Below, piece after piece: positions 1 to 40,419 of a stretch of 64,000 nt of DNA; position 1 is the first letter of the stretch; the number at the start of each line of letters is the position of its first letter. The translations under genes and the position numbers were made by a program. This stretch comes from Escherichia coli (lineage in GTDB: Bacteria; Pseudomonadota; Gammaproteobacteria; Enterobacterales; Enterobacteriaceae): assembly GCF_965641715.1 (NCBI RefSeq), contig NZ_OZ282453.1; one strand, written 5' to 3'. The notes under the pieces were generated by a model, which worked only from the letters and a program-made list of their open reading frames with translations, made no database searches and had not been told where the DNA came from.

Positions 1-374
1 GACAAGACCATGCAGAACGCAAATTTTTTGTCGGTGGACTTGGTAACTACCAGTTTGGTTTTTACATGATTAATAACTCAAGGACAGCCAATGGCACCGA
101 TGGTCAGGCGTACATGGACAATAACGGTAACTGGCTTTGTGGCTCGCAAGTTATTCCTGGCAACTATGGCAATTTTGATTCCAGATATGTGAGAGATGTT
201 CGCCTGGGTACGCGAGTTGTTCAATTGATGGCGCGTGGTGGTCGTTATGAAAAAGCCGGACACGCAATTACCGGATTAAGAATCATTGGTGAAGTAGATG
301 GCGATGATGAAGCCATCTTCAGGCCAATACAAAAATACATCAATGGCACATGGTATAACGTCGCACAGGTGTAA
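1..374 (+). CDS. Silent alternative tail-fibre C-terminal segment, promoterless; frame is open from position 3, first Met at 66
   Basis: 102-aa track ORF ends ...RPIQKYINGTWYNVAQV, parallel to the C-terminus of the expressed tail fibre (...[17 protein letters not shown]); opposite strand to the expressed fibre and followed by its own assembly gene. Confidence 0.5.
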   Translation, partial: QDHAERKFFVGGLGNYQFGFYMINNSRTANGTDGQAYMDNNGNWLCGSQVIPGNYGNFDSRYVRDVRLGTRVVQLMARGGRYEKAGHAITGLRIIGEVDGDDEAIFRPIQKYINGTWYNVAQV

Positions 375-905
375 ATGATGCAGCATTTAAAAAATATTAA
401 GTCTGGAAATCCTAAAACGAAAGAACAATATCAGCTAACAAAGAATTTTGATGTTATCTGGTTATGGTCCGAAGACGATAAAAACTGGTATGAGGAAGTG
501 AAAAACTTTCAGCCAGACACAATAAAGATTGTTTACGATGCAAATAATATTATTGTCGCCATCACTAAAGATGCCTCCACGCTTAACCCTGAAGGTTTTA
601 GCGTCGTTGAGGTTCCTGATATTACAGCCAACCGCCGCGCTGATGATTCAGGAAAGTGGATGTTTAAGGATGGAGCTGTAGTTAAACGGATTTATACGGC
701 AGACGAACAGCAACAACAAGGCGAATCACAAAAGGCCGCATTGCTTTCCGAAGCTGAATCAGTCATCCAGCCGCTGGAACGCGCTGTCAGGCTGAATATG
801 GCAACAGACGAGGAACGCACACGACTGGAAGCATGGGAACGCTACAGTGTTCTGGTCAGCCGTGTGGATACGGCAAATCCTGAATGGCCACAAAAGCCTG
901 AATAA
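375..905 (+). CDS. Tail fibre assembly protein, alternate copy
   Basis: 176 aa; N-terminus [25 protein letters not shown] is a clear paralogue of the 177-aa assembly protein at 934-1467 on the other strand. Confidence 0.8.
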
Positions 906-933
906 AAATTAAGGCCCGCGATCGGGCCTTGTC

Positions 934-1467
934 TCATTCAGGTTGTTCGGGAAATGTTACTGGCAGGCTGGAGGTGTCTGTAGATTCGACTTTCTGCGCA
1001 TAGAGCATCCACTCGGTTAATTTTTGTTTATTCTCGTCGGAAATGATGCCCAGCCGTAGCTGTGAGTCCCATAGCTGGGTTTTATCCCTAACGAGCTGTA
1101 GCAGGCTTTGCTTTTCATTTTCCGCCTGCTGCCTCTGCTCTTCCTCGGTATAAGTTCGCTTTACCACTACGCCATCTTTGAACATCCATTTACCAGAAAT
1201 ATCAGCCCGGCGATTTGCTGTAATATCAGGAACCTCAACGACGCTTGCGCCTTCTGGATTAATTGCTGAAACATCCTTTTCAATACAAATAATAACGTTG
1301 TTGTGGTCATAGACCATTTTCAACGTATCAGGCTGAAAGTTCTTTTGTTCCTCATACCAGTTTTTCCCATCCTCTGTATAAAGCCATTTGATGTTAAATT
1401 GTTTCGTTAGCTGGTATTGCTCTTTTGTTTTAGGGTTGCCAGCAGTAATATTTTTTAAGTGCATCAT
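934..1467 (-). CDS. Tail fibre assembly protein (P2 gpG-like)
   Basis: 177 aa directly downstream of the tail fibre gene, same strand; Tfa-like N-terminus [20 protein letters not shown]. Confidence 0.85.
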
Positions 1468-1469
1468 AA

Positions 1470-3698
1470 TTAAATACTCCCCGCGTTATACCACGTCCCA
1501 TTAATGCAATACTGAATTGGCCTTGCCTGAGTTGTATCAATTAATTCATCACGGTTTCCGTTAACTGAACCCGTAACGACATAACCTGACCTGTCAGACC
1601 AGCCGGGACCATTCCATGTCTGAACAGATGACAGACCGCCAAGGCGAATACCTGTAATAAACCTTGAGTTACATTCTGCCTGCGTGTATGCACCAACATC
1701 TCCCGCAGAGGGTTTGCGGGTCGTGGTGTAAAACTCTGACCAGTTAGCCTCAAATCCATAACCATCACGCGCTGAACGATAAAAAATACCGCCGTTCCTG
1801 TAATTCACGCGGAACTGTACAGCAGGGCAGCTCCCCGTATTCATATTGAAGTGGAGGATTAATGTCGATGCACCGCTGATATCTGCATCATAAACACCGC
1901 TATTCCAGTTCCAGCCAACAGCTTTATCATTTGCAACCCTGCTTCCTGTTTGCCCTAAAGCAAATGCAGGCTGCTGGTTTTTCGTGTTGTAGTCTCTTCG
2001 CCAGCCAGGAGCATAAGCATCACCATGATTAATATAAGTGAATTGAGCGTTAGAGGTGCCGCCTCCGGTGGAAGTGCTTGGTGTTGTTACACGGATGGTC
2101 ATGGCACCTTTATTACCCATAACCTCAATAACGCAACCTGCAAGATGAATAGTTCCACAGCCAGTATCGGTAATAATTTTATTATTGCCGTATGACCATG
2201 AACATTTGCACATCCAGTATGGGTGATTGAATGCCCCTTGAGAATCCAGCCATTCAATCAATTGTGCCGTTGTCCAGTTCCCTGCCCCTGTACTAATAGC
2301 ACTGTGAAAAGCGCGACATGCACCAATATTTTTTGTGAAGGTATCTTTTCCTGGAATATCTGCGCCGTTCTGGTTTTTCTGTAATGCGCCAGAAGCCTGA
2401 TTTACCGTTTCTTGTAAACCGAGGTATTCGATAACGGCAGCAACGGTCGATTTCGCAAGAATATCCCGCCCGACTTTTGTCAGGGTTGCCAGGCTGGCGA
2501 CATCATTCCCCGTAAAATACGGAAACCTGTCTGCCGCAGTAGCAAGCCCGGCCAGCGCCGTCAGGGTGGCATCTTTCGGTTGCTTACCCGCAAGCGCGTT
2601 AGTCATGGTGGTCGCAAAATTCGGGTCGTTTCCCAGCGCCGCCGCTAACTCGTTCAGCGTATTCAGTGCGTCAGGTGACGAATCTACAAGGGCGGCAATC
2701 GCAGCCATAACGAAAGCCGTGCTTGCGATTTGGGTATTATTCGTTCCCTGTCGCGCAGTTGGCGTTGTTGGCGTTCCGGTCAGCGCAGGACTGTTTAAGG
2801 GCGCTTTCTTGTTCGTTTCATCCATTACCGCCTTAACCGCTTTCGATGTCGCGGCCAGTGTTTCAGACGTGCTGTTGGTGGCACTACTGAGCTGGACTAT
2901 CCCTTTTTGTGCCGTCGTGGCGTCCTGAGCGGTATATTTTGCGTTAGCAAGGTCATACGCGGCCTTTACTGCTTTCGGCGTTGCAGCCTGCGTTTCAGAC
3001 GTGCTGTTGGTGGCGCTACTGAGCTGAACTATCCCTTTTCGCGCAGTGGTAGCGTCCTGTGCGGTGTATTTGCCATTAGCCAGGTCATATGCCGCCTTAA
3101 CAGCCTTTGGCGTTGCCGCAAGCGTTTCAGACGTGCTGTTAGTGGCGCTGCTAAGTTGAACAAAGCCTTTTGCGGTCAGCGAGGCGTCCGGGTGACGTCG
3201 TGAGTGTTCATGCTCTTTCAGTTTGTCATCCACGTAATCCACTGTGGCCATTACCATGGTGTTATCCACGGTAAGCGCCACGGTGGCAGTGCTGGATACG
3301 GTCAGAATGGTGCGAAATGTTTGTGCACGTCCTGACCCTTCGGCAACGGTTGGCTTGTAACTTTCGGCAGTATTGCCTACTGCGATTAAATCGCCGTGCT
3401 CATCAAACACACCAATTTCCCGGATCCAGAATCCGCCCGTTTCTGGAGGAATAACCAGCTCCGCAATAATGCGGTTCTGATGTGTTGCGTCCAGGATGAC
3501 GCGATTAACAGTGTGTCGCCACACCTCATGCACCAGACGGGTCTGCTTACTGTCTGGTGTGGGCAACGTGCCGCCACCGTCGCCCACGGCCATATGAGTC
3601 AGGCGGACAGGCTTACCATCTGGCGCGGCTGCCTGAGCTAATTTTTTTGCACCCGTATCGGTGATAACGGTTTTAAATTTTCGTGTTGTGGTACTCAT
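1470..3698 (-). CDS. Tail fibre protein (P2 gpH-like)
   Basis: 742 aa; conserved fibre N-terminus, three internal 44-aa repeats ([10 protein letters not shown]...), C-terminus ...[11 protein letters not shown]; sits between gpI-like and assembly genes. Confidence 0.85.
2830..3215 (-). repeat. Three tandem 132-bp repeats (44-aa units) inside the tail fibre gene
   Basis: Motif gtttcagacgtgctgtt(g/a)gtggc recurs at 2860, 2992 and 3124, period 132 bp; protein repeat ...[13 protein letters not shown](L/Q)AATPKAVKA... Confidence 0.8.
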
Positions 3699-3700
3699 GC

Positions 3701-4231
3701 TTAATCGTCCGGATAAATGGTAATGACTTCACCGTCGTAAGTTGCTGCCGCCGCGAAAATATCTCCCGGGATCTCCTGAATGATATTCAGCCCTGTCATG
3801 TGGCGGCTGACCGGGCGGGCATCAGCAATCAACCGCTCCATTTCCAGATACATTTCCTCCGTCACGCCACTGTCCAGCGTGCCGACTTCAACGGTAAATG
3901 TTCCCGGTTCTCCGTCGAACTCCCACCACTCAGACACGCGAATGAGGTATCCCAGCGGCTCAATGGCCCGGCGCAGTGCGCTGATGGTCCCTTTGTGTCG
4001 GTGTATCAGCCATGCATCACGAATCACCTGTCGCTTTGTCTCTTCCGGCCAGTTGCGATCCCAGCGGTCAACGGAAAATGCCCAGGCGAGATAAGGCAGC
4101 AAATGCACCGGGCAGGTGTCCGGTGACCACAGCGTGTTGAGGTCTACCGGGATGTCTGTAATGCGCGCTCCGACAGCTTCGGCGCAACGCATGAAACGGC
4201 TGGCTGATGGCGGTAACAGTGAATTACTCAT
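3701..4231 (-). CDS. Baseplate/tail protein gpI-like; start moved to internal ATG at 4231
   Basis: Track ORF 3701-4264; the sequence from MSNSLLPP... resembles P2 gpI as I recall it (LLPYLAWAFSVDRWD motif); ATG at 4231. Confidence 0.75.
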   Translation of the reverse strand: MSNSLLPPSASRFMRCAEAVGARITDIPVDLNTLWSPDTCPVHLLPYLAWAFSVDRWDRNWPEETKRQVIRDAWLIHRHKGTISALRRAIEPLGYLIRVSEWWEFDGEPGTFTVEVGTLDSGVTEEMYLEMERLIADARPVSRHMTGLNIIQEIPGDIFAAAATYDGEVITIYPDD

Positions 4232-5120
4232 TGCGCCCACCTTCGCTGATGGTGAATGACTCACAGCGCGCCGCCTGTATGTCGCTGATGGCCAGATTCT
4301 GTGTGGGTTCGATTATCTCCACGCGTTGCACACCGTGCACATGCAGTGCGGCAGCAATGGCGGACAACGCCACGTCCTGACCGATAAGCCCCTGCTCAGC
4401 CAGCCACTTCCTGAACGACGATTCAGCCGCCGCCAGAATAGGTTCGGATTCCGGGCCGGGGTAAAAGTACAGTTTTGCATTCAGCCGCCATGTCACGATT
4501 CTGGCACTCTGTACGGTCAGGCGGTCGGCCACCGGGCGGGTATCCTCTGCATTCAGAACGGCGCGAACGGTATTAAGCAACGCCTCCGTTGCTGTGCCGT
4601 CGCCCTCAGTGGACAGGATGGAAACCGTCACGTTGGCCGGAGACGGGCTGATGGCCCGCGCATCGCGCACCAGACCGCTGGCGCTGCGTGCAAAATACTC
4701 GTATGCGCCTGACGGGCCAGCAACACTCAGACCATCATACGCCCGTTGCGCCCGCAGTCTCAGCGAGGTGTCGCTCTCCATCACCGCGTCGGTGGTATCC
4801 GTTGCCGGAGTGATAACCAGGCGCTTTGTGTTCATATTGCCCGCGAGGTTGTCCAGGTCTGTTCCGGTGCTGTGGCTCAACATGCAGGCGCGTGCGCCCT
4901 CGTTAACCCGCTGGCGTAACAGCATTTCACGAAACGACATGGTTTGAGCGATAACGTTCAGGGGTTCCGATTCCAGCTCCAGCGCGGCGGAGACGGCTTC
5001 ACGCTGTTCGGCGGGATAAGCCGCAATCATCATGGCCTTTGTGTCAGCCAGAATTGCTTCAAAGTCAGGCTCCGCGATGATGGCGGGTTCCGGTAACTGG
5101 GAAAGGTCAACGGCAGGCAT
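4224..5120 (-). CDS. Baseplate assembly protein gpJ-like
   Basis: 298 aa; position between W and I and size match P2 gpJ. Confidence 0.8.
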   Translation of the reverse strand: MPAVDLSQLPEPAIIAEPDFEAILADTKAMMIAAYPAEQREAVSAALELESEPLNVIAQTMSFREMLLRQRVNEGARACMLSHSTGTDLDNLAGNMNTKRLVITPATDTTDAVMESDTSLRLRAQRAYDGLSVAGPSGAYEYFARSASGLVRDARAISPSPANVTVSILSTEGDGTATEALLNTVRAVLNAEDTRPVADRLTVQSARIVTWRLNAKLYFYPGPESEPILAAAESSFRKWLAEQGLIGQDVALSAIAAALHVHGVQRVEIIEPTQNLAISDIQAARCESFTISEGGRNE

Positions 5121-5123
5121 GAT

Positions 5124-5474
5124 TTACTCCCTCAGCGTGATGGTTAATTCAACATTCTGCATGGTCTGCATGACAGTACCCGACAGCGTCACCCCGGCGC
5201 GGCCTCCTGCTTTCCAGACAACGTCGATGGCATCCAGGGCAATGCGGGGTTCCCATCGCGTCAGTGCAATCACGGCAGCACTCATGCATTGCAGACGCGT
5301 GGTGTTATTCATGGGTTCGTCAATTAAATCAGGCACAAGGCTGCCATATTCCCGTCGCATAACCCGGCTTGCCAGCGGGGTGATCAGGATGTCCCTGACT
5401 GACTGTTTCAGGTGCTCCATATCGTTCAGGTTTCCCGTCCCGTCCGGGTTCATTCCTGTGTAGCGGGTTGTCAC
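5124..5474 (-). CDS. Baseplate protein gpW-like (GPW/gp25 family)
   Basis: 116 aa; size and position between V and J. Confidence 0.8.
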   Translation of the reverse strand: MTTRYTGMNPDGTGNLNDMEHLKQSVRDILITPLASRVMRREYGSLVPDLIDEPMNNTTRLQCMSAAVIALTRWEPRIALDAIDVVWKAGGRAGVTLSGTVMQTMQNVELTITLRE

Positions 5475-6052
5475 TGCGGGCCTCCTGTCGAATCGCTGCC
5501 ACCTTTAACGCCACCGTGTTTATGCGTATGCACTGTGATGCCGTTTGAGGTGAAATCGCCGCCGCTGTGCGTGATATTGCCGCTCATCTTTCCCCCTTTT
5601 GTGACGTCAAGCGTCGCTGTTCTCAGAAGGTCTGTGCATTCCACGACAGGCGTGTCCAGTGTCACACTGACGGATGCCTGCAGGGTGGCCGTTTTCATGC
5701 CGCTGGCGCTCAGTGCGCCTGCGTCTGCGTCGTAGCGGAACACCGCGCCATCCGGCGCGCTGACCACGATTTCTTTCAGGCTTTTGCCTGGGGCCGGAAT
5801 GGCATCACTCCACAGGCTGCCAATTATCATGGCGGTTTCCGGGTTGCCGCCAATGCAGGCAATGACCACCTGTTCGCCTGGTGATGGCGGCAGCCACACA
5901 TTGAAGGCTCCCGCGCGCGTGGTGTTCCAGCGCAACCAGCCTGTTTCCAGTTCGCCGCTGCGAACGCGCACGCGCCAGGACTTCTCATCAACTTCAGAGA
6001 TGATCCCGGTGCGGATGATATTGCTCAGTAGCCGCATGAGTTCTGCGCTCAC
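5471..6052 (-). CDS. Baseplate spike protein gpV-like
   Basis: 193 aa; position upstream of W; gpV-like N-terminal fold pattern. Confidence 0.75.
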   Translation of the reverse strand: MSAELMRLLSNIIRTGIISEVDEKSWRVRVRSGELETGWLRWNTTRAGAFNVWLPPSPGEQVVIACIGGNPETAMIIGSLWSDAIPAPGKSLKEIVVSAPDGAVFRYDADAGALSASGMKTATLQASVSVTLDTPVVECTDLLRTATLDVTKGGKMSGNITHSGGDFTSNGITVHTHKHGGVKGGSDSTGGPQ

Positions 6053-6693
6053 CGTACAGCCTCCGCAATCCGGCCCAGCACCGTGTTATAAATCAGGCGC
6101 TCATCTGCCTGGCTGATACCCAGCAGCTCACGTACCGGGTAATCGGTGAAAATGCCCGGCGCAACCTGATCGCGCTCACCGAACTGATGAACGCGTGCAA
6201 TACGTGCGGCCACGCCGCTGTAACCCACCGTCACACCGGAAGCATCTGCACGGGCTTTCAGGTAGCGGGCGGTGCGCAGTTTTACGAACATGGGGACGCG
6301 CCTGGTGCTGTCCTGGTTGATGCGCCGGGTGCGTATTTCCAGAAAGCGGTCGATGTCATCCCGGTAAAACGTGCGGATGCTGTTTTTATCCTCATCCCAC
6401 CCGGTGATGGTTCGCCCGTATTTCCCCGTGTCGTGATGCCAGTTTTTCAGCGTGCGTGCTTCGTTATTCCAGATAAAGCGAATGCGCTCCTGTATCCGGG
6501 TTACGCGGCGTCTGCGTGGTGTCCATGCGGTCCCGTCCGGCGCTTTCTGTGACCGGATGCGCGCCTGCTGGGCGCGGCGTAAATCCTGTGCCAGCTTTCT
6601 GGCGATGTTATTGATGGCCTGCTGATTCAGGCTGTCGCGGATGGCCTCAAAGGTTTCATCCACGCGGGTGAATGCCTTATCCATCGCTTTCAC
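6049..6693 (-). CDS. Phage virion morphogenesis / tail completion protein (gpS-like); start uncertain
   Basis: 214-aa track ORF in the R-S position; overlaps the R-like ORF by 17 nt, so the true start may be internal. Confidence 0.55.
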   Translation of the reverse strand: MKAMDKAFTRVDETFEAIRDSLNQQAINNIARKLAQDLRRAQQARIRSQKAPDGTAWTPRRRRVTRIQERIRFIWNNEARTLKNWHHDTGKYGRTITGWDEDKNSIRTFYRDDIDRFLEIRTRRINQDSTRRVPMFVKLRTARYLKARADASGVTVGYSGVAARIARVHQFGERDQVAPGIFTDYPVRELLGISQADERLIYNTVLGRIAEAVR

Positions 6694-14617: not shown

Positions 14618-15141
14618 CGCGCTTCGCTTGTCTGCTGCTTCGCCGGGGCATAAAAAATTTATGCCCCGACTCTCCAGCTCCTGTATCAATCAGATAATTT
14701 CACGACGTCTTCCAGCTTATCGCCATCATCGACGGTCAGGCTCTTACGCAATCCCACCGCGTTGACTGCATGTTCTTGCCGCCTCAGTGCGATTTTGACG
14801 GCCTTATCTGTCACCCCATCAAATCAAAAGCCCTCACGCCTTTTTCACGCTCAGTGTGAGAAATACAGCCATTCTGTTGTGTCGCTGCGACATCGTTCAG
14901 GGAATGCTATTTACCCCCTGAAACGCGGGCTGTTCCCCCGTCACCTGCGCGCAGAAAAAACGCGTTTTTTTGTGCACGCACGGATCCTTGACGGATCCAG
15001 TCGCCACGCGGGCCGGAAGGGTAAAAAGTTGTTCAAAAAAATTGTGCAAATTTGTGCACTATTGTGCGGTGTATAAAATGAAAATATGGCGGTGTTATTA
15101 CTGCCCAACAAGCCGTTATACTTACGTTATGGGCGTGCATA
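14618..15141. other. Non-coding interval where cos and the packaging site are expected by P2 synteny; cos itself not identified
   Basis: Lies between portal stop and phd start; contains inverted repeat GGGGCATAAA/TTTATGCCCC (14645-14667), palindromes CTGCGCGCAG and A6CGCGT6 (14945-14970), two GGATCC sites 11 bp apart and TTGTGC repeats. Confidence 0.3.
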
Positions 15142-15498
15142 ATGGAAATGAATATGAAAACTGTAACTGATGATGAATTTCGTGAGAACCTGAGTGAAAT
15201 TCTGGATTACCTTTCTTCCGGTGGCAGTGTCGTTATCACGGCGCAGGGAGGGAAGGATGTTGTTCTTGCTGGTTCTGATCTTAGTCCTGAAATACGGGCT
15301 GTCCTTGGCAAAACCAAAAAACTGCGGGATCAAATAAACAAAATGAAGCAACCACTCTTAATAAATGCAGTGAGAGATCTGGAAAAACGTCATCCAGCTC
15401 TTGTCGCACAGAGAAAAAAAGGATTGTCTTTTGAAGATGCAATGAAGCGTACAAGAGAAAAACATGCGGATATCATTAAAAAGCTTGAGGATAACTGA
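15142..15498 (+). CDS. phd: Phd/YefM-family antitoxin (118 aa, C-terminally extended)
   Basis: N-terminus ...KTVTDDEFRENLSEILDYLSSGGSVVITAQGGKDVVLAGSD has the Phd/YefM pattern; stop overlaps the doc start (ATGA at 15498). Confidence 0.7.
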   Translation: MEMNMKTVTDDEFRENLSEILDYLSSGGSVVITAQGGKDVVLAGSDLSPEIRAVLGKTKKLRDQINKMKQPLLINAVRDLEKRHPALVAQRKKGLSFEDAMKRTREKHADIIKKLEDN

Positions 15499-15905
15499 TG
15501 GACATAGTGTTTTTGTCAAAAGAACAAGTAGAACGTATCCATGCTGAAACTTTACCCCAGAGCGGAAATGCCAATGACGGGCTACTTGAAGGTGCTTTAA
15601 ATCGCGTCAGGACACTACACTACTATGAAGGGGTTGATGATATTCATGCTCTGGCTGCTATGTATTTGATTGGTATAGCCAAGGCTCATGCCTTTCATGA
15701 TGGGAATAAACGCACAGCTTTTCAGGCTGCATCAATATTTTTAATGATGAACTCTTCCGAACTTTCAAACTCCCTGCTGCTGGTTAAATTAACGGTGTTT
15801 TCAGCAATGGGGATAGCTACCCTTGAGGAAGTTACCTTTGCTTTGAAATTGCTGTCTGATTATGGCAATGAATTAATCAGCGACTACGAAGAAGATTATA
15901 TTTAA
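15498..15905 (+). CDS. doc: Doc-family toxin (Fic fold)
   Basis: 135 aa; Fic/Doc signature HAFHDGNKRTA present; coupled to the upstream antitoxin. Confidence 0.85.
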   Translation: MDIVFLSKEQVERIHAETLPQSGNANDGLLEGALNRVRTLHYYEGVDDIHALAAMYLIGIAKAHAFHDGNKRTAFQAASIFLMMNSSELSNSLLLVKLTVFSAMGIATLEEVTFALKLLSDYGNELISDYEEDYI

Positions 15906-16071
15906 TGCTGGCATACTCTGTCGTGTTAAGACAACAGCCTTTGCGGAGACAGGGCAGGGTGCCAGACTTGCCCGCAGCGCGTCTGACATGAGCAGTTATT
16001 CATCTTTTTTATTGTTTTTCTCCATGCAGGGCGACAGTGCGCCCCGATAAAATTAAAAGCCGTCAAATTCG

Positions 16072-16407
16072 TCATTCATGCGTTTTTTCTTCATGGTCTG
16101 TCACTTCTCTCCTGATAACTTCATTGCACAAATCAACGCACTCATTGCAGATGTAAACAGACGGTCCGGCAATCACCTTTGTGACTTCGTACTGGGATTT
16201 ATTGCAGAAGCTGCAATAAATCGTCTCCTCACCTGAAGTCCATGTTTTGCTGGTTTCGCCAGACATCAGTTGTTTGAGGTCTTTTTCACGACGAAGAACT
16301 ATCTGGCCACATTCAGCTATTTTTTGGATGTTGACATTTTCTTCTTTCGCCAGCGCTTCCATCCGCTCAATCAGTCGCTGCGCTTTTTCTCTGTCAATGC
16401 GTTGCAT
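16072..16407 (-). CDS. Small protein with C-terminal ClpX-type C4 zinc-binding domain
   Basis: 111 aa; C-terminus [36 protein letters not shown] matches the ClpX N-domain (LYCSFCGKSQHEV...YICDECVDLCNDII); N-terminal half predicted helical/charged. Confidence 0.7.
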
Positions 16408-16470
16408 TGTGTCCCCCTTGTTTATGTTCCCGGGTTAAAGTCATCAGGGCGGATGCGCCCTGATGTTGTG

Positions 16471-16782
16471 TTATTCGGGAAATAACGCCCGGATATTTCC
16501 GGCCATCTGACTGGTTATCTGTGCGGTTGATACTGGCTGTGACGCGGGGCGTTCTGTCCTGGTTTGTGTCACTGATAACGCTTCATCATCAGCCCATGCA
16601 GCCAGTCGGTAAGCCTCTGCCGGATTCATTTTCAGAAGTGCCAGCCCGGCCAGAAAAGCCACGCGTTGGCCGCTTTTGCGCGCTTCTGGTGTAAGGCTGT
16701 CCAGCCAGGCGCATGCTTCACCTTCGTTCTTGACGGCGGCGGGCTTCAGATAGAAACTTATCCGTCTGGTTGGAGTCGTCAT
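16471..16782 (-). CDS. parR: ParR-like DNA-binding partition adaptor; start at ATG 16782
   Basis: 103 aa from MTTPTRRISFYLKPAAV...; aligns with what I recall of R1 ParR (RRTIAFKLNPDV...LDS...AGLAL); ATG lies 5 nt after the parM stop, with AGGAG upstream. Confidence 0.55.
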   Translation of the reverse strand: MTTPTRRISFYLKPAAVKNEGEACAWLDSLTPEARKSGQRVAFLAGLALLKMNPAEAYRLAAWADDEALSVTQTRTERPASQPVSTAQITSQMAGNIRALFPE

Positions 16783-16786
16783 TGGT

Positions 16787-17746
16787 TTACTCCTTGTCCA
16801 TTGCGTACAGCCCATTAACCAGAGCAAACTGTGGCACCCCGTCCGCGATGAAAGTCGCATTAACTCCGCAGGCTTCGCGGATAGCGGGTGCCACAATCTC
16901 CGCCCCGCCACCGACAACCATCACCCGCCCGTAACCCGAAAAAACCGCCAGCGCGCGGATCACGCGTTGTTTCAGTGTTTCTTCCTTTTCACGAATAACC
17001 GCCATCAGGCTGGCGTAATGCGCGTCATTGTGGATGTGCTGGCGCAACCAGGCTTCATCATGGCGATGTTCGATAATGGTATTGGCGATGTGGTGACTGA
17101 TACGCATACCGTTAGTGGCCATCACCGACAGTACGGCATCGGCCATCAGGGAAACGCCTACGTGTGGATCGCAAAACACCTGGCTGATACCTGCCAGTTG
17201 CCCCTGAACCTTTGCCACATCCAGTGTGGTTCCGCCCAAATCCACAATCAGCAGGGATTCAAGCGGACTCATGTCAGCCAGTGCTTTAAAGCCAGCCGGA
17301 ATGGATTCAGGCATAACCCGTACGTTACGGATAGTGAATGTTTCGCCGTTCTGGTACTCCACCGGGCGCATAACGTTCGCTTTTTTGCGGCTGATGTTGG
17401 CCATGTCCGGCTGTGCGTTTGTGTCGAAATACTCGCTCAATGGCAGGGTGACAACCACATCCACCTCCTGTGGCGTGATGCCTGATTTGACCAGCGCGTG
17501 ATGAATGGCAATGACATTCACATCGCTGTACTGGTATTGCGTGTCGGTCGTCTGGACAAAGCGATCGCTGACCGGATCAAAACCATAGCGCACGCCATCA
17601 AGCATGTAGTTCGCGGGCTGCGAGCCACCGAACGGCGCAGACCATTCCGACTTGAAGCTGTTCGGGCTGATGGCGTTGCGGCGTTCGCCGTTCTCAGTCC
17701 ATGCCAGCTTGATGTTGGTGGAGCCGTCGTCGATACAAATTTTCAT
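16787..17746 (-). CDS. parM: ParM/StbA actin-like partition ATPase
   Basis: 319 aa; MKICIDDGSTNIKL..., ISPNSF, YSDVNV, KKAN, FTI.NV.VMPESIPAG, DLGGTTLD and VMV.GGGAE blocks parallel plasmid R1 ParM. Confidence 0.9.
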   Translation of the reverse strand: MKICIDDGSTNIKLAWTENGERRNAISPNSFKSEWSAPFGGSQPANYMLDGVRYGFDPVSDRFVQTTDTQYQYSDVNVIAIHHALVKSGITPQEVDVVVTLPLSEYFDTNAQPDMANISRKKANVMRPVEYQNGETFTIRNVRVMPESIPAGFKALADMSPLESLLIVDLGGTTLDVAKVQGQLAGISQVFCDPHVGVSLMADAVLSVMATNGMRISHHIANTIIEHRHDEAWLRQHIHNDAHYASLMAVIREKEETLKQRVIRALAVFSGYGRVMVVGGGAEIVAPAIREACGVNATFIADGVPQFALVNGLYAMDKE

Positions 17747-21320: not shown

Positions 21321-21642
21321 GGTGTGGCCCCTTGTGTAGTAAGTTGTGAAAACTCACCATCCAGAGCTGCGAAACTGTGGGTGGCGAGACGTACGAGGTT
21401 CGCAGTACCGGCTACACAAGAACCCGGCCCGACCGAAGTCGGCCCCGTACGCCCCGCCATAATTCTGACGCGAAAAAAACGTGGCAATACAGTACGCACA
21501 AAAAAACCGCTGGCGCGGTTGTGCGCTTGTGTAGTCAGCAGGCTGCGAAACCCGGCACCCGTTTTGTGAGGTGCAGCGGAAATGTAACCTGACTGATTGC
21601 GGCATGGCAAGCGGTTTTTTTGTGTGTGCATGTTCTGGTTTC

Positions 21643-24660: not shown

Positions 24661-24756
24661 GGCCAGAAAACTGGTTAGACCTGCTTTTTGTCTGGTCTGA
24701 TTATTGCTGGAAAGAGGCTGGAGAAATTGTAGAGCGGTTCATTGGAGGGCTTCGTA

Positions 24757-25761
24757 ATGTCGATTAAGAAGCTCGAAGATGGTCGTTATTTGCTGGACAT
24801 CAGGCCGAACGGACGCAAGGGAAAGCGCGTGCGTAAGGTATTTGACAAAAAATCGGTAGCGGTGGCCACTGAACGCTACATCATGGCGAACGCTGAAAAG
24901 CGGGAATATATACAGGGCTACCGTGATCGTCGAACGCTAAATGATTTGCTTGAGTTGTGGTGGATGTATCACGGCCAGCACAGGCGTAAGGCGGAAGAAG
25001 ACCGAAAACAACTGCGCAACATAATCAATGAGCTTGGCGCTGATATGCAGGCTGTGGATCTTGATAAGCTGAAAATTATCGCGTGGCGTTCTCAAAAGAT
25101 AGCTGAAGGATTGAAACCGTCATCTGCTAACAGGTACATGAATCGGTTATCCGGAATGTTTACCGTGCTGAAAAAAATAGGTCTTTGGGATGCAGAACAT
25201 CCAGTAAGGGGAATTTCTATTCTTTATGTATCTCCACGAGAAATGGCGTTCCTGTCACAGAAGGAAGTGGCGCTATTGCTCGATACACTGGAGGGCGACT
25301 ACTGGCGTGTTGCGCTTTTGTGTTTAAGCACAGGGGCGCGCTGGAGTGAAGCTTGTAAGCTTCGTGGTGAACAGATAGTTCATAACCGTGTAACGTTTCT
25401 TGAAACCAAAAATGGCCGGAAGAGAACAGTGCCAATTTCGCAGGCAGTTTGTGAGGCGATCAAAACCAGAGAAACAGGCGGCTTGTTTGAGGTGAAGTAC
25501 CGGGAATTCTGCCTGGCGCTGAAAAGAGTTAAGCCCGACTTACCAAAAGGCCAGGCTGCACATGTGCTGCGGCATACGTTCGCCAGCCATTTTGTGATGA
25601 ACGGAGGAAACATTATTGCGCTTCAGAAGATTCTTGGTCACGCAACCATTCAGCAAACAATGGCATATGCGCATTTTGCACCGGATTACCTGCAGGATGC
25701 GGTGGCCCTTAATCCGCTGAAAGGTGGCGTAAGTGTCCACGCAGTGTCCACGGGGGATTAA
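24757..25761 (+). CDS. int: Tyrosine integrase, P2 type
   Basis: MSIKKLEDGRYLLDIRPNGRKGKRVRKVFDKKS... parallels the P2 Int N-terminus; ATG 24757 preceded by GGAGGG; C-terminal catalytic region HVLRHTFASHFVMNGG...LGH. Confidence 0.9.
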   Translation: MSIKKLEDGRYLLDIRPNGRKGKRVRKVFDKKSVAVATERYIMANAEKREYIQGYRDRRTLNDLLELWWMYHGQHRRKAEEDRKQLRNIINELGADMQAVDLDKLKIIAWRSQKIAEGLKPSSANRYMNRLSGMFTVLKKIGLWDAEHPVRGISILYVSPREMAFLSQKEVALLLDTLEGDYWRVALLCLSTGARWSEACKLRGEQIVHNRVTFLETKNGRKRTVPISQAVCEAIKTRETGGLFEVKYREFCLALKRVKPDLPKGQAAHVLRHTFASHFVMNGGNIIALQKILGHATIQQTMAYAHFAPDYLQDAVALNPLKGGVSVHAVSTGD

Positions 25762-25919
25762 TTTTATATAGCCTGAAACGGCTTAAAGGGCGATACTGAA
25801 TAACAATTTTTCAGTATTGCCCGTCTAAATGGTTATGTTGTTATCTGTATGATTATTAATGTTTTTTCAGATTAAACAGCAGTTTGCAAATGGGCGTTTG
25901 TTGATAAAGGAGCCTTAGA

Positions 25920-27077
25920 TTGTCAGAGACTGAAAAAGGGTTAAAAATCCTTGTTGATGAAAATATGCCTTATGCCCGCGACTTATTTAGCCGTTTGGGT
26001 GAGGTGACCGCGGTTCCCGGGCGTCCAATCCCCGTCGCTCAACTGGCAGACGCGGATGCGCTGATGGTGCGTTCGGTCACGAAAGTGAATGAATCTTTGC
26101 TGGCAGGAAAACCCATTAAATTTGTTGGCACTGCCACTGCGGGGACCGACCATGTCGATGAAGCATGGTTGAAGCAGGCGGGAATTGGTTTTTCCGCTGC
26201 ACCTGGCTGTAATGCGATTGCGGTGGTGGAATATGTTTTCTCCTCCCTGCTGATGCTTGCCGAACGCGATGGATTTTCACTGCACGAGCGTACCGTGGGG
26301 ATCGTGGGCGTTGGTAATGTTGGTCGGCGTTTACAGGCACGACTGGAAGCGTTAGGGATTAAAACCTTGCTTTGCGATCCGCCTCGCGCTGACCGTGGGG
26401 ATGAGGGTGATTTCCGCTCGCTGGATGAATTAGTTCAGCATGCGGATATTCTGACTTTCCATACGCCACTTTTCAAAGACGGGCCGTACAAAACGCTGCA
26501 TCTGGCGGATGAAAAACTGATCCGTAACCTGAAGCCAGGAGCGATTCTGATTAACGCCTGCCGTGGCGCAGTCGTCGATAATACCGCGCTGCTGACCTGC
26601 CTGAATGAAGGCCAGAAGTTAAGCGTAGTGCTGGATGTCTGGGAAGGCGAACCGGAACTTAACGTGGAGTTGCTGACAAAAGTGGATATCGGCACGCCGC
26701 ATATTGCAGGCTATACCCTGGAAGGTAAAGCACGCGGTACTACGCAAGTGTTTGAAGCCTATAGCAAGTTTATTGGGCATGAACAGCACGTTGCGCTGGA
26801 TACATTACTACCCGCGCCAGAGTTTGGTCGCATTACACTGCATGGCCCGCTCGATCAACCGACGCTGAAAAGGCTGGTGCATTTGGTGTATGATGTGCGC
26901 CGCGATGACGCACCGCTGCGTAAAGTCGCCGGGATACCGGGTGAGTTCGATAAACTGCGCAAAAACTATCTTGAGCGCCGTGAATGGTCATCTCTGTATG
27001 TAATTTGTGATGACGCCAGTGCGGCATCATTGCTGTGTAAACTGGGTTTTAACGCCGTTCATCATCCGGCACGTTAA
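25920..27077 (+). CDS. pdxB: Erythronate-4-phosphate dehydrogenase; start codon uncertain (TTG 25920 or ATG 25965)
   Basis: Near-identity over ...[21 protein letters not shown]... to E. coli PdxB as I recall it. Confidence 0.9.
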
Positions 27078-32779: not shown

Positions 32780-33230
<451 letters not shown>

Positions 33231-39645: not shown

Positions 39646-40419
39646 ATGTCCGAGAATAAATTAAACGTTATCGATTTGCACAAACGCTATGGCGAACACG
39701 AAGTGCTGAAAGGGGTGTCACTGCAAGCGAATGCCGGGGATGTCATAAGCATCATCGGATCGTCGGGATCGGGGAAAAGTACCTTTCTGCGCTGCATTAA
39801 CTTCCTCGAAAAACCGAGTGAAGGGGCGATCGTGGTCAATGGCCAGACGATCAATCTGGTACGCGACAAAGACGGTCAACTCAAAGTCGCCGATAAAAAT
39901 CAACTGCGCTTACTGCGCACACGCCTGACGATGGTATTCCAGCACTTCAATCTCTGGAGCCATATGACGGTGCTGGAAAACGTCATGGAAGCGCCGATTC
40001 AGGTGTTGGGCCTGAGCAAGCAGGAAGCGCGCGAGCGGGCGGTGAAGTATCTGGCAAAAGTCGGGATAGACGAACGTGCACAGGGGAAATATCCGGTGCA
40101 TCTTTCCGGCGGTCAGCAACAGCGTGTTTCTATCGCGCGGGCGCTGGCGATGGAACCGGAAGTTTTACTGTTTGATGAACCTACCTCGGCGCTCGATCCT
40201 GAACTGGTAGGCGAAGTGTTGCGCATTATGCAGCAACTGGCAGAAGAGGGGAAAACCATGGTGGTAGTGACTCACGAAATGGGCTTTGCTCGTCATGTTT
40301 CTACTCACGTCATTTTCCTCCATCAGGGGAAAATAGAGGAAGAAGGCGCGCCGGAGCAGTTATTTGGCAACCCGCAAAGCCCTCGTCTGCAACAGTTCCT
40401 TAAAGGTTCGCTGAAATAA
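39646..40419 (+). CDS. hisP: Histidine ABC transporter ATP-binding protein
   Basis: 257 aa; Walker [10 protein letters not shown]. Confidence 0.95.

Follow-up and report, generated by a model that had tools for sequence, protein, structure and literature searches.

A probable Gin/Cin-type invertible host-range segment in a P2-like prophage of Escherichia coli

We analysed a 64,000-nucleotide stretch of an Escherichia coli genome (contig NZ_OZ282453.1 of RefSeq assembly GCF_965641715.1), referred to throughout as the window, and concentrated on its first 3,698 positions, in which a prophage tail-fibre gene, H, and its assembly gene face a second assembly gene and the end of a second fibre tip. 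This arrangement is, with a probability of roughly 0.85 based on sequence comparisons, a Gin/Cin-type invertible host-range segment of a P2-like (P88-like, Xuanwuvirus) E. coli prophage, in which the S'/U' tip would be switched on. Directly observed were the gene layout, one crossover site, an alternative tip that is compatible in frame, and homology to proven systems.

The tail-fibre cassette and its crossover site

The open reading frame (ORF) listing of window positions 1–3698 shows H and its assembly gene on the minus strand, facing the end of the second tip and the second assembly gene on the plus strand (Table 1). An earlier sequence-only reading of this DNA had described the same order, and all four coding features were found at the places it gave. 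All four products were classed by PHROGs and Pfam as tail fibre or tail fibre assembly proteins. Of the fibre gene, the constant part lies outside the presumed segment; inside it are two alternative C-termini in opposite orientation, each accompanied by an assembly gene of its own. By sequence comparison, the tip currently expressed would be of the Mu S'/U' type and the other, which we refer to as silent, of the P2 H/G type. In Mu terms the prophage would be in a G(-)-like state, with S'/U' on and S/U off.

Table 1. Features of the window discussed in the text
Feature	Position	Strand	Remarks
Silent alternative fibre tip, 3' end	3–374	plus	123 codons and stop; S-type / P2-H-type
Silent assembly gene	375–905	plus	176 aa; U / P2-G type
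GC-rich hairpin and T-run between the convergent assembly genes	911–930	minus	Consensus terminator scan; pattern match only
Expressed assembly gene	934–1467	minus	177 aa; U' type
Fibre gene H	1470–3698	minus	742 aa
Variable expressed C-terminal part of H	1470–2422	minus	aa ~426–742; S'-type tip
Constant part of H	2423–3698	minus	aa 1–425; N-terminal collar domain and three 44-aa fibre repeats
gix-like crossover site within H	2409–2434		26 bp; predicted right-hand boundary of the invertible segment
Window-held part of the predicted ~3.07-kb invertible segment	1–2421		
Doc-family toxin gene	15498–15905		118-aa ORF upstream
111-aa ORF with ClpX-type zinc ribbon	16072–16407		
ParM-like partition gene	16787–17746		After the zinc-ribbon ORF
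Prophage integrase ORF	24742–25761		

Pfam identified a Phage_tail_fib domain at residues 6–153 of H and three Phage_fiber_2 repeats at residues 173–301, the latter encoded by three 132-nt tandem repeats at 2828–3189. The constant part is 95.6% identical to residues 1–452 of P88 H and 73% identical to P2 H, and the expressed variable part is 93.7% identical to P1 Sv' and 88.4% identical to Mu S'. Among the relatives described below H measures 742, 744, 764 or 788 residues, and these length differences suggest that the number of repeats varies.

The end of the silent tip is read in frame 3, which stays open from base 3 to a TAA at 372–374 (123 codons without a stop), as had been claimed; its first ~216 codons would lie upstream of the window. 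Positions 1–374 are identical in DNA sequence to the end of the silent fragment in a related prophage locus, L014, in which the open frame of this fragment extends over 340 codons, counted from the crossover site (gene call of 326 residues). The silent tip shares 92% identity with the C-terminus of P88 H and 90% with P1 S. Over its last 90 residues it shares 80% identity with the end of P2 H, and the final 30 residues match completely, which bears out the resemblance to the P2 gpH tail noted in the sequence-only reading. The silent and expressed tips are alike only in their last ~70 residues (38% identity, E = 7e-8), and their 3' ends form a 40-nt inverted repeat that is 80% complementary. A promoter scan of the plus strand over window positions 1–905, which hold the silent genes, returned no promoter-like site, in line with the claim that the silent ORF is promoterless.

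The 176-residue assembly protein shares 98% identity with P1 U, 94% with Mu U and 93% with P2 G and falls into PHROG 136, tail fibre assembly (E = 6e-81); exactly the same protein was found in P2-like, P1-like, Mu-like and phage-plasmid loci. Its 177-residue counterpart, which belongs to the same PHROG (E = 3e-75), shares 98% identity with Mu U' and 96% with P1 U'. The two proteins are 58.8% identical over 177 residues (E = 2e-75), consistent with the proposed paralogy, and their genes form a 361-nt inverted repeat with 70% complementarity. The hairpin between these convergent genes is likely the terminator of the H operon in the present orientation. After an inversion, the plus-strand assembly gene would be co-expressed with the silent tip.

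The crossover site was identified within H. On the coding strand it reads TTATCGAATACC TC GGTTTACAAGAA, with TTATCGAATACC as the outer half-site and the central dinucleotide at 2421–2422, and it matches 23 of the 26 bases of the Mu G-segment boundary site in gene S, the counterpart of H (TTATCCAAAACC TC GGTTTACAGGAA). The central dinucleotide divides H into constant residues 1–425 and variable residues 426–742. The homology partner also changes here: similarity to P1 and P7 stops at 2390–2392 and similarity to P88-like P2 phages starts at 2396. The sequence-only reading had advised a search upstream of the window for an inverted repeat matching a site inside the fibre gene, where the gix-like site was indeed found, and had placed the crossover repeats upstream of the window; this location holds for the partner site, found upstream in ten relatives, and not for the site in H. 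We also searched the window for a third crossover site, such as the one in the shufflon of a P2-like prophage of E. coli E2348/69, and found none; a weak match at 49–66 has the wrong spacing.

Relatives in both orientations and the upstream half of the segment

We compared the window with 16 distinct P2-like loci (L001, L002, L006, L014, L016, L018–L022, P88/L025, L028 and L031–L034), together with other elements that carry the cassette. The orientation seen in the window recurs in L001, L002, L014, L016 and L018–L020, and the flipped orientation was identified in L006, L021, L022, P88 and L028. In L006, L022 and L023, window positions 1–2438 and 2396–6000 align on opposite strands and overlap only in a ~43-bp repeat around the site. 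At the level of the junctions, the H-side half-site in loci of the window orientation joins the arm starting ...GGTAAATCAG and the invertase-side half-site joins ...GGTAAACAGG, whereas in the flipped loci L006, L022, L023 and P88 the pairing of half-sites and arms is the opposite one and the junctions are exactly reciprocal. L021 has the flipped-type pairing with a degenerate S-type arm. In L028 (E. coli O145:NM FWSEC0002), a prophage 96–99% identical to that of the window occupies the same pdxB-adjacent site with its cassette flipped relative to the window. Both orientations also occur in IncFII-RepA phage-plasmids (L005 versus L009–L013) and in P1-like plasmids (L007 versus L015/L024).

The alternative fibre is compatible in frame. 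When the constant part of H from the window was joined in silico to the silent segment of L014, the inversion product was an uninterrupted 764-residue ORF, 96.3% identical to P88 H over its full length. In L014 itself the outer half-site contains an in-frame TAA, and behind this stop the silent frame becomes open exactly at the site. Based on this homology and on these relatives, we infer that the segment inverts in the present genome as well.

Among complete E. coli genomes both types of junction are frequent: the window arrangement was found over at least 80% of positions 1–4300 in 149 of them, and the flipped Sc+S junction in 357. A window-type junction query taken from L016 matched only 5 complete E. 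coli genomes, owing to the high variability of the S' arm next to the site. No complete E. coli genome in the collection exceeds 93.7% identity to window positions 1–4300, a ceiling set by the divergent patch at 2001–2400, and an exact look-up of the 742-residue H protein found no record. The counts from junction queries are biased by this allele variability and give no fair ratio of the orientations, and the 149 genomes are a rough figure for the window orientation. Two assemblies of the E. coli ATCC 25922 phage-plasmid, which carries the closest allele, showed the same orientation. In that phage-plasmid (L029) both arms of the segment, at 3370–3394 and 6431–6455, start with the same S'-like sequence (…GGTAAATCAG), so that the first residues are common to both of its alternative tips, which is not the case in the P2-like loci. 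For enteropathogenic E. coli E2348/69, genome sequencing of clonal cultures documented ongoing inversion in two P2-like prophages, one of which has three repeats (PMC4272514).

The relatives also indicate which parts should precede window position 1. In all 16 P2-like loci the cassette is adjoined by the remainder of the silent tip, which NCBI labels 'missing N-terminus'. The left-site scan covered L001, L002, L006, L014, L016, L018–L022, P88 and L028, and ten of these (all but L021 and L028) gave a second site in inverted orientation; the crossover sites of L021 are degenerate, and a pattern search of L028 returned no left site. In 16 of 16 relatives a gene for a ~195-residue serine recombinase lies next to the silent tip and is followed by the tail genes U and T. 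This invertase is 81% identical to Mu Gin and 73% identical to P1 Cin, is near-identical to Gin over the catalytic domain, carries the VRVST motif, and has Gin (4M6F, E = 9e-101) as its best match among solved structures. The first 200 nt of its gene are 97–100% identical to Mu gin, and the records of P1 and P7 annotate an enhancer in the equivalent 5' part of cin. By analogy with these annotations and from established knowledge, the 5' end of the relatives' invertase gene is expected to contain the recombination enhancer.

Mapping onto L014, in which window position 1 corresponds to 4683, the left-site centre to 4038–4039 and the invertase gene to 3384–3971, places the predicted left site of our genome ~645 bp upstream of window position 1, inverted relative to the site in H. 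Its expected form is TTATCTAAAACC TC GGTTTACAGGAA. The invertase gene would then lie ~0.7–1.3 kb upstream of position 1, and the whole invertible segment would measure ~3.07 kb. Given an intact invertase in 14 of the 16 relatives, this genome probably retains both the left site and an intact invertase gene.

The cassette is shared well beyond P2-like prophages. Window positions 1–2000 are about 100% identical, with intact frames, to cassettes in the P2-like loci L006 and L016 and in the Mu-like locus L008, and an identical cassette is present in the IncFII-RepA phage-plasmids L005 and L009–L013. The G+C content of this part is 44.7%, compared with 53–59% in the adjoining P2-like late genes, in keeping with exchange of this module between unrelated phages. 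Next to the crossover site, on its inner side, the expressed tip contains a mosaic patch (2001–2400) that is 56–84% identical to the otherwise ~100% identical cassettes of L006, L016 and L008; the same patch is 96% identical to P1 Sv' and 97.6% identical to the 48.5-kb phage-plasmid of ATCC 25922. The ~100% cassette identity across elements, the end of similarity at the crossover sites and the low G+C content raise the idea that the cassette moves as a unit between unrelated co-resident phages by invertase-catalysed site-specific exchange at gix sites, and not by homologous recombination; we regard this as a speculative and rather unlikely proposal.

Mechanism, alternative readings and prophage setting

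In the Gin, Cin and Hin systems, inversion needs Fis bound to an enhancer within the invertase gene, with strand exchange taking place at the central dinucleotide. In the prophage studied here, the invertase, aided by host Fis on the enhancer, would exchange strands at the central dinucleotide of each site and thereby turn the ~3.07-kb segment. Codons 1–425 of H would thereby be joined in frame to the silent tip, yielding a 764-residue fibre like that of P88, and the other assembly gene would come to lie behind H in the late operon. A lysogen population would be expected to release two kinds of virion that differ in receptor specificity; in Mu, the two tips give different host ranges. P2 H belongs to the late operon, and the choice of tip therefore matters only on prophage induction.

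Several observations weigh against an active switch in this genome. The invertase gene, left site and enhancer all lie outside the window. The inner half-site of the site in H carries a G-to-A change (CAAGAA for CAGGAA), and frozen copies of the cassette exist: the invertase gene is frameshifted in L021 (8420–8975) and L032 (862–1508). The features that concern the invertase and the sites would suit a static fossil, complete in layout and locked with S'/U' on, owing to loss or inactivation of the invertase or of the left site, with the silent genes as unexpressed relics; canonical P2, which has kept a site and lacks both an invertase and a second tip, is such a frozen version. The half-site substitution is also present in the left site of L014, and the changed half-site resembles a natural hixL half-site; we infer that it is tolerated. 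L032 has many other frameshift annotations, which are possibly sequencing errors, and L021 and L032 may be examples of frozen cassettes. The silent parts in the window, however, show no decay: positions 1–374 match the silent tip of L014 base for base, the first 2,000 positions agree with the intact cassettes of L006, L016 and L008, and the exact 176-residue protein recurs in many other elements. Together with the intact invertase in 14 of 16 relatives, this makes a fossil an unlikely explanation.

The side-by-side position of two tip and assembly-gene pairs might also be read as two fibre sets expressed independently, without any DNA rearrangement. The second tip, however, has neither a start codon nor an N-terminal baseplate-attachment domain; the silent frame of the relatives opens exactly at the crossover site and is labelled as lacking its N-terminus; the plus strand at 1–905, which holds the silent genes, offers no promoter-like site; and the reciprocal junctions of the relatives show physical inversion. 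We consider independent expression highly improbable. A collapse or chimera among cassette copies in one genome is a still more improbable source of the arrangement. Cassettes that are ~100% identical in co-occurring mobile elements can confuse short-read assemblers, and the window starts inside the cassette, but the join to P2-like sequence falls exactly at the crossover site with H in frame, and many complete, closed genomes show this arrangement too.

An invertible segment has consequences mainly for annotation and interpretation, and knowledge of these systems is unchanged by it. Under this reading, the 'partial tail fibre' on the plus strand and the assembly gene behind it would be the off-state half of a host-range switch and not pseudogenes, and the fibre protein predicted from a single assembly would be only one of the two that the prophage can make. 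The site at 2409–2434 fixes the fusion point, and the alternative 764-residue fibre can therefore be predicted. Segments of this kind also account for assembly breaks and for strain-to-strain 'inversions' in comparisons of E. coli genomes.

Past position 3698 the window continues with the genes of a P2-like prophage (I, J, W, V, S, R and onward). Window positions 1–25000 align with Escherichia phage P88 (Xuanwuvirus) at 96% identity over 78% of their length and with Citrobacter phage Shae_phiSM at 95% identity over 84%. The P2-type late gene order (…V W J I H G) and the P2-family structural genes place the element in the Peduoviridae as a P88-like / Xuanwuvirus prophage, and the annotation and gene order of the syntenic prophage L028 agree with this. 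Positions 40000–64000 match the pta-nuo region of E. coli chromosomes at 99.8% identity, and the host is identified on this sequence basis as E. coli. The host gene pdxB starts at about 25.9 kb (window region 24742–27077), and from this and the position of the integrase ORF the prophage end and attachment site fall at about 25.8–25.9 kb. The other end would lie roughly 10 kb upstream of the window, judging from L028.

Elsewhere in the prophage, Rfam matches above the gathering score were found on the minus strand of the early region for C4 antisense RNA (21377–21464) and the adjoining isrK (21500–21574); this pair at 21377–21574 may represent a P1/P7-style antisense-RNA immunity element in a P2-like phage. 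A variable region (15142–17746) follows the portal gene and holds the toxin, zinc-ribbon and partition genes of Table 1; the part at ~15070–16415 is absent from L028. On the host chromosome, positions 32833–33176 contain a naRNA4 (CssrE) repeat element in four tandem copies.

Comparison with known invertible systems

The type of switch described here is already known from the G segment of Mu, the C segments of P1 and P7, the P segment of e14, P88 and the P2-like prophages of E2348/69. On sequence evidence, the layout in the window is homologous to the named invertible systems and not merely similar to them.

Once the predicted upstream part is included, the Mu G segment with Gin shares the gene order (Sc | S-U / U'-S' | invertase), the ~3-kb size and a 26-bp site with a central TC, which in Mu reads TTATCCAAAACC TC GGTTTACAGGAA at both ends. 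Unlike in Mu, the constant part of the fibre and the phage backbone in the window are P2-like and the outer half-site in H is TTATCGAATACC; the relatives' invertase departs from Gin in its C-terminal DNA-binding domain. The C segments of P7 and P1 are 95% and 94% identical in DNA sequence to window positions 1–2390, which upholds the Sc-Sv-U / U'-Sv' layout of the Mu G and P1 C kind that the initial reading had proposed. P1 and P7 differ in their cix sites, which have a central TT (core CCTTGG) and other half-sites, and their homology stops about 20–30 bp short of the window's site; the P1 segment is also longer (4.2 kb), with longer variable parts.

P88 is of the same phage type and has the same constant fibre part and sites in gp39–gp43, with a DNA invertase (gp43) and a silent fibre fragment (gp42) annotated; the P88 paper does not mention the invertase. 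Its sequence represents the opposite orientation, in which the S/U type is expressed, and it differs further in that the expressed tip of the window has a P1-type patch beside the site. H of P2 contains, at the same codons as in the window (encoding VIEYLGLQE; P2 codons ~370–385), a near-perfect site, TTATCGAATATC TC GGTTTACAGGAA, fused to an S-type tip. In contrast to the window, P2 is without an invertase, a second tip or a second assembly gene, and the non-essential fun(Z) follows G; its site looks like a frozen remnant of the switch. In the e14 prophage of E. coli K-12, the serine invertase Pin flips alternative fibre C-termini in the P segment (PMC4272514). The cassette of the window follows the same switch principle as e14, a likeness drawn from the description of that system and not from sequence comparison, whereas the e14 backbone is that of a lambdoid defective prophage.

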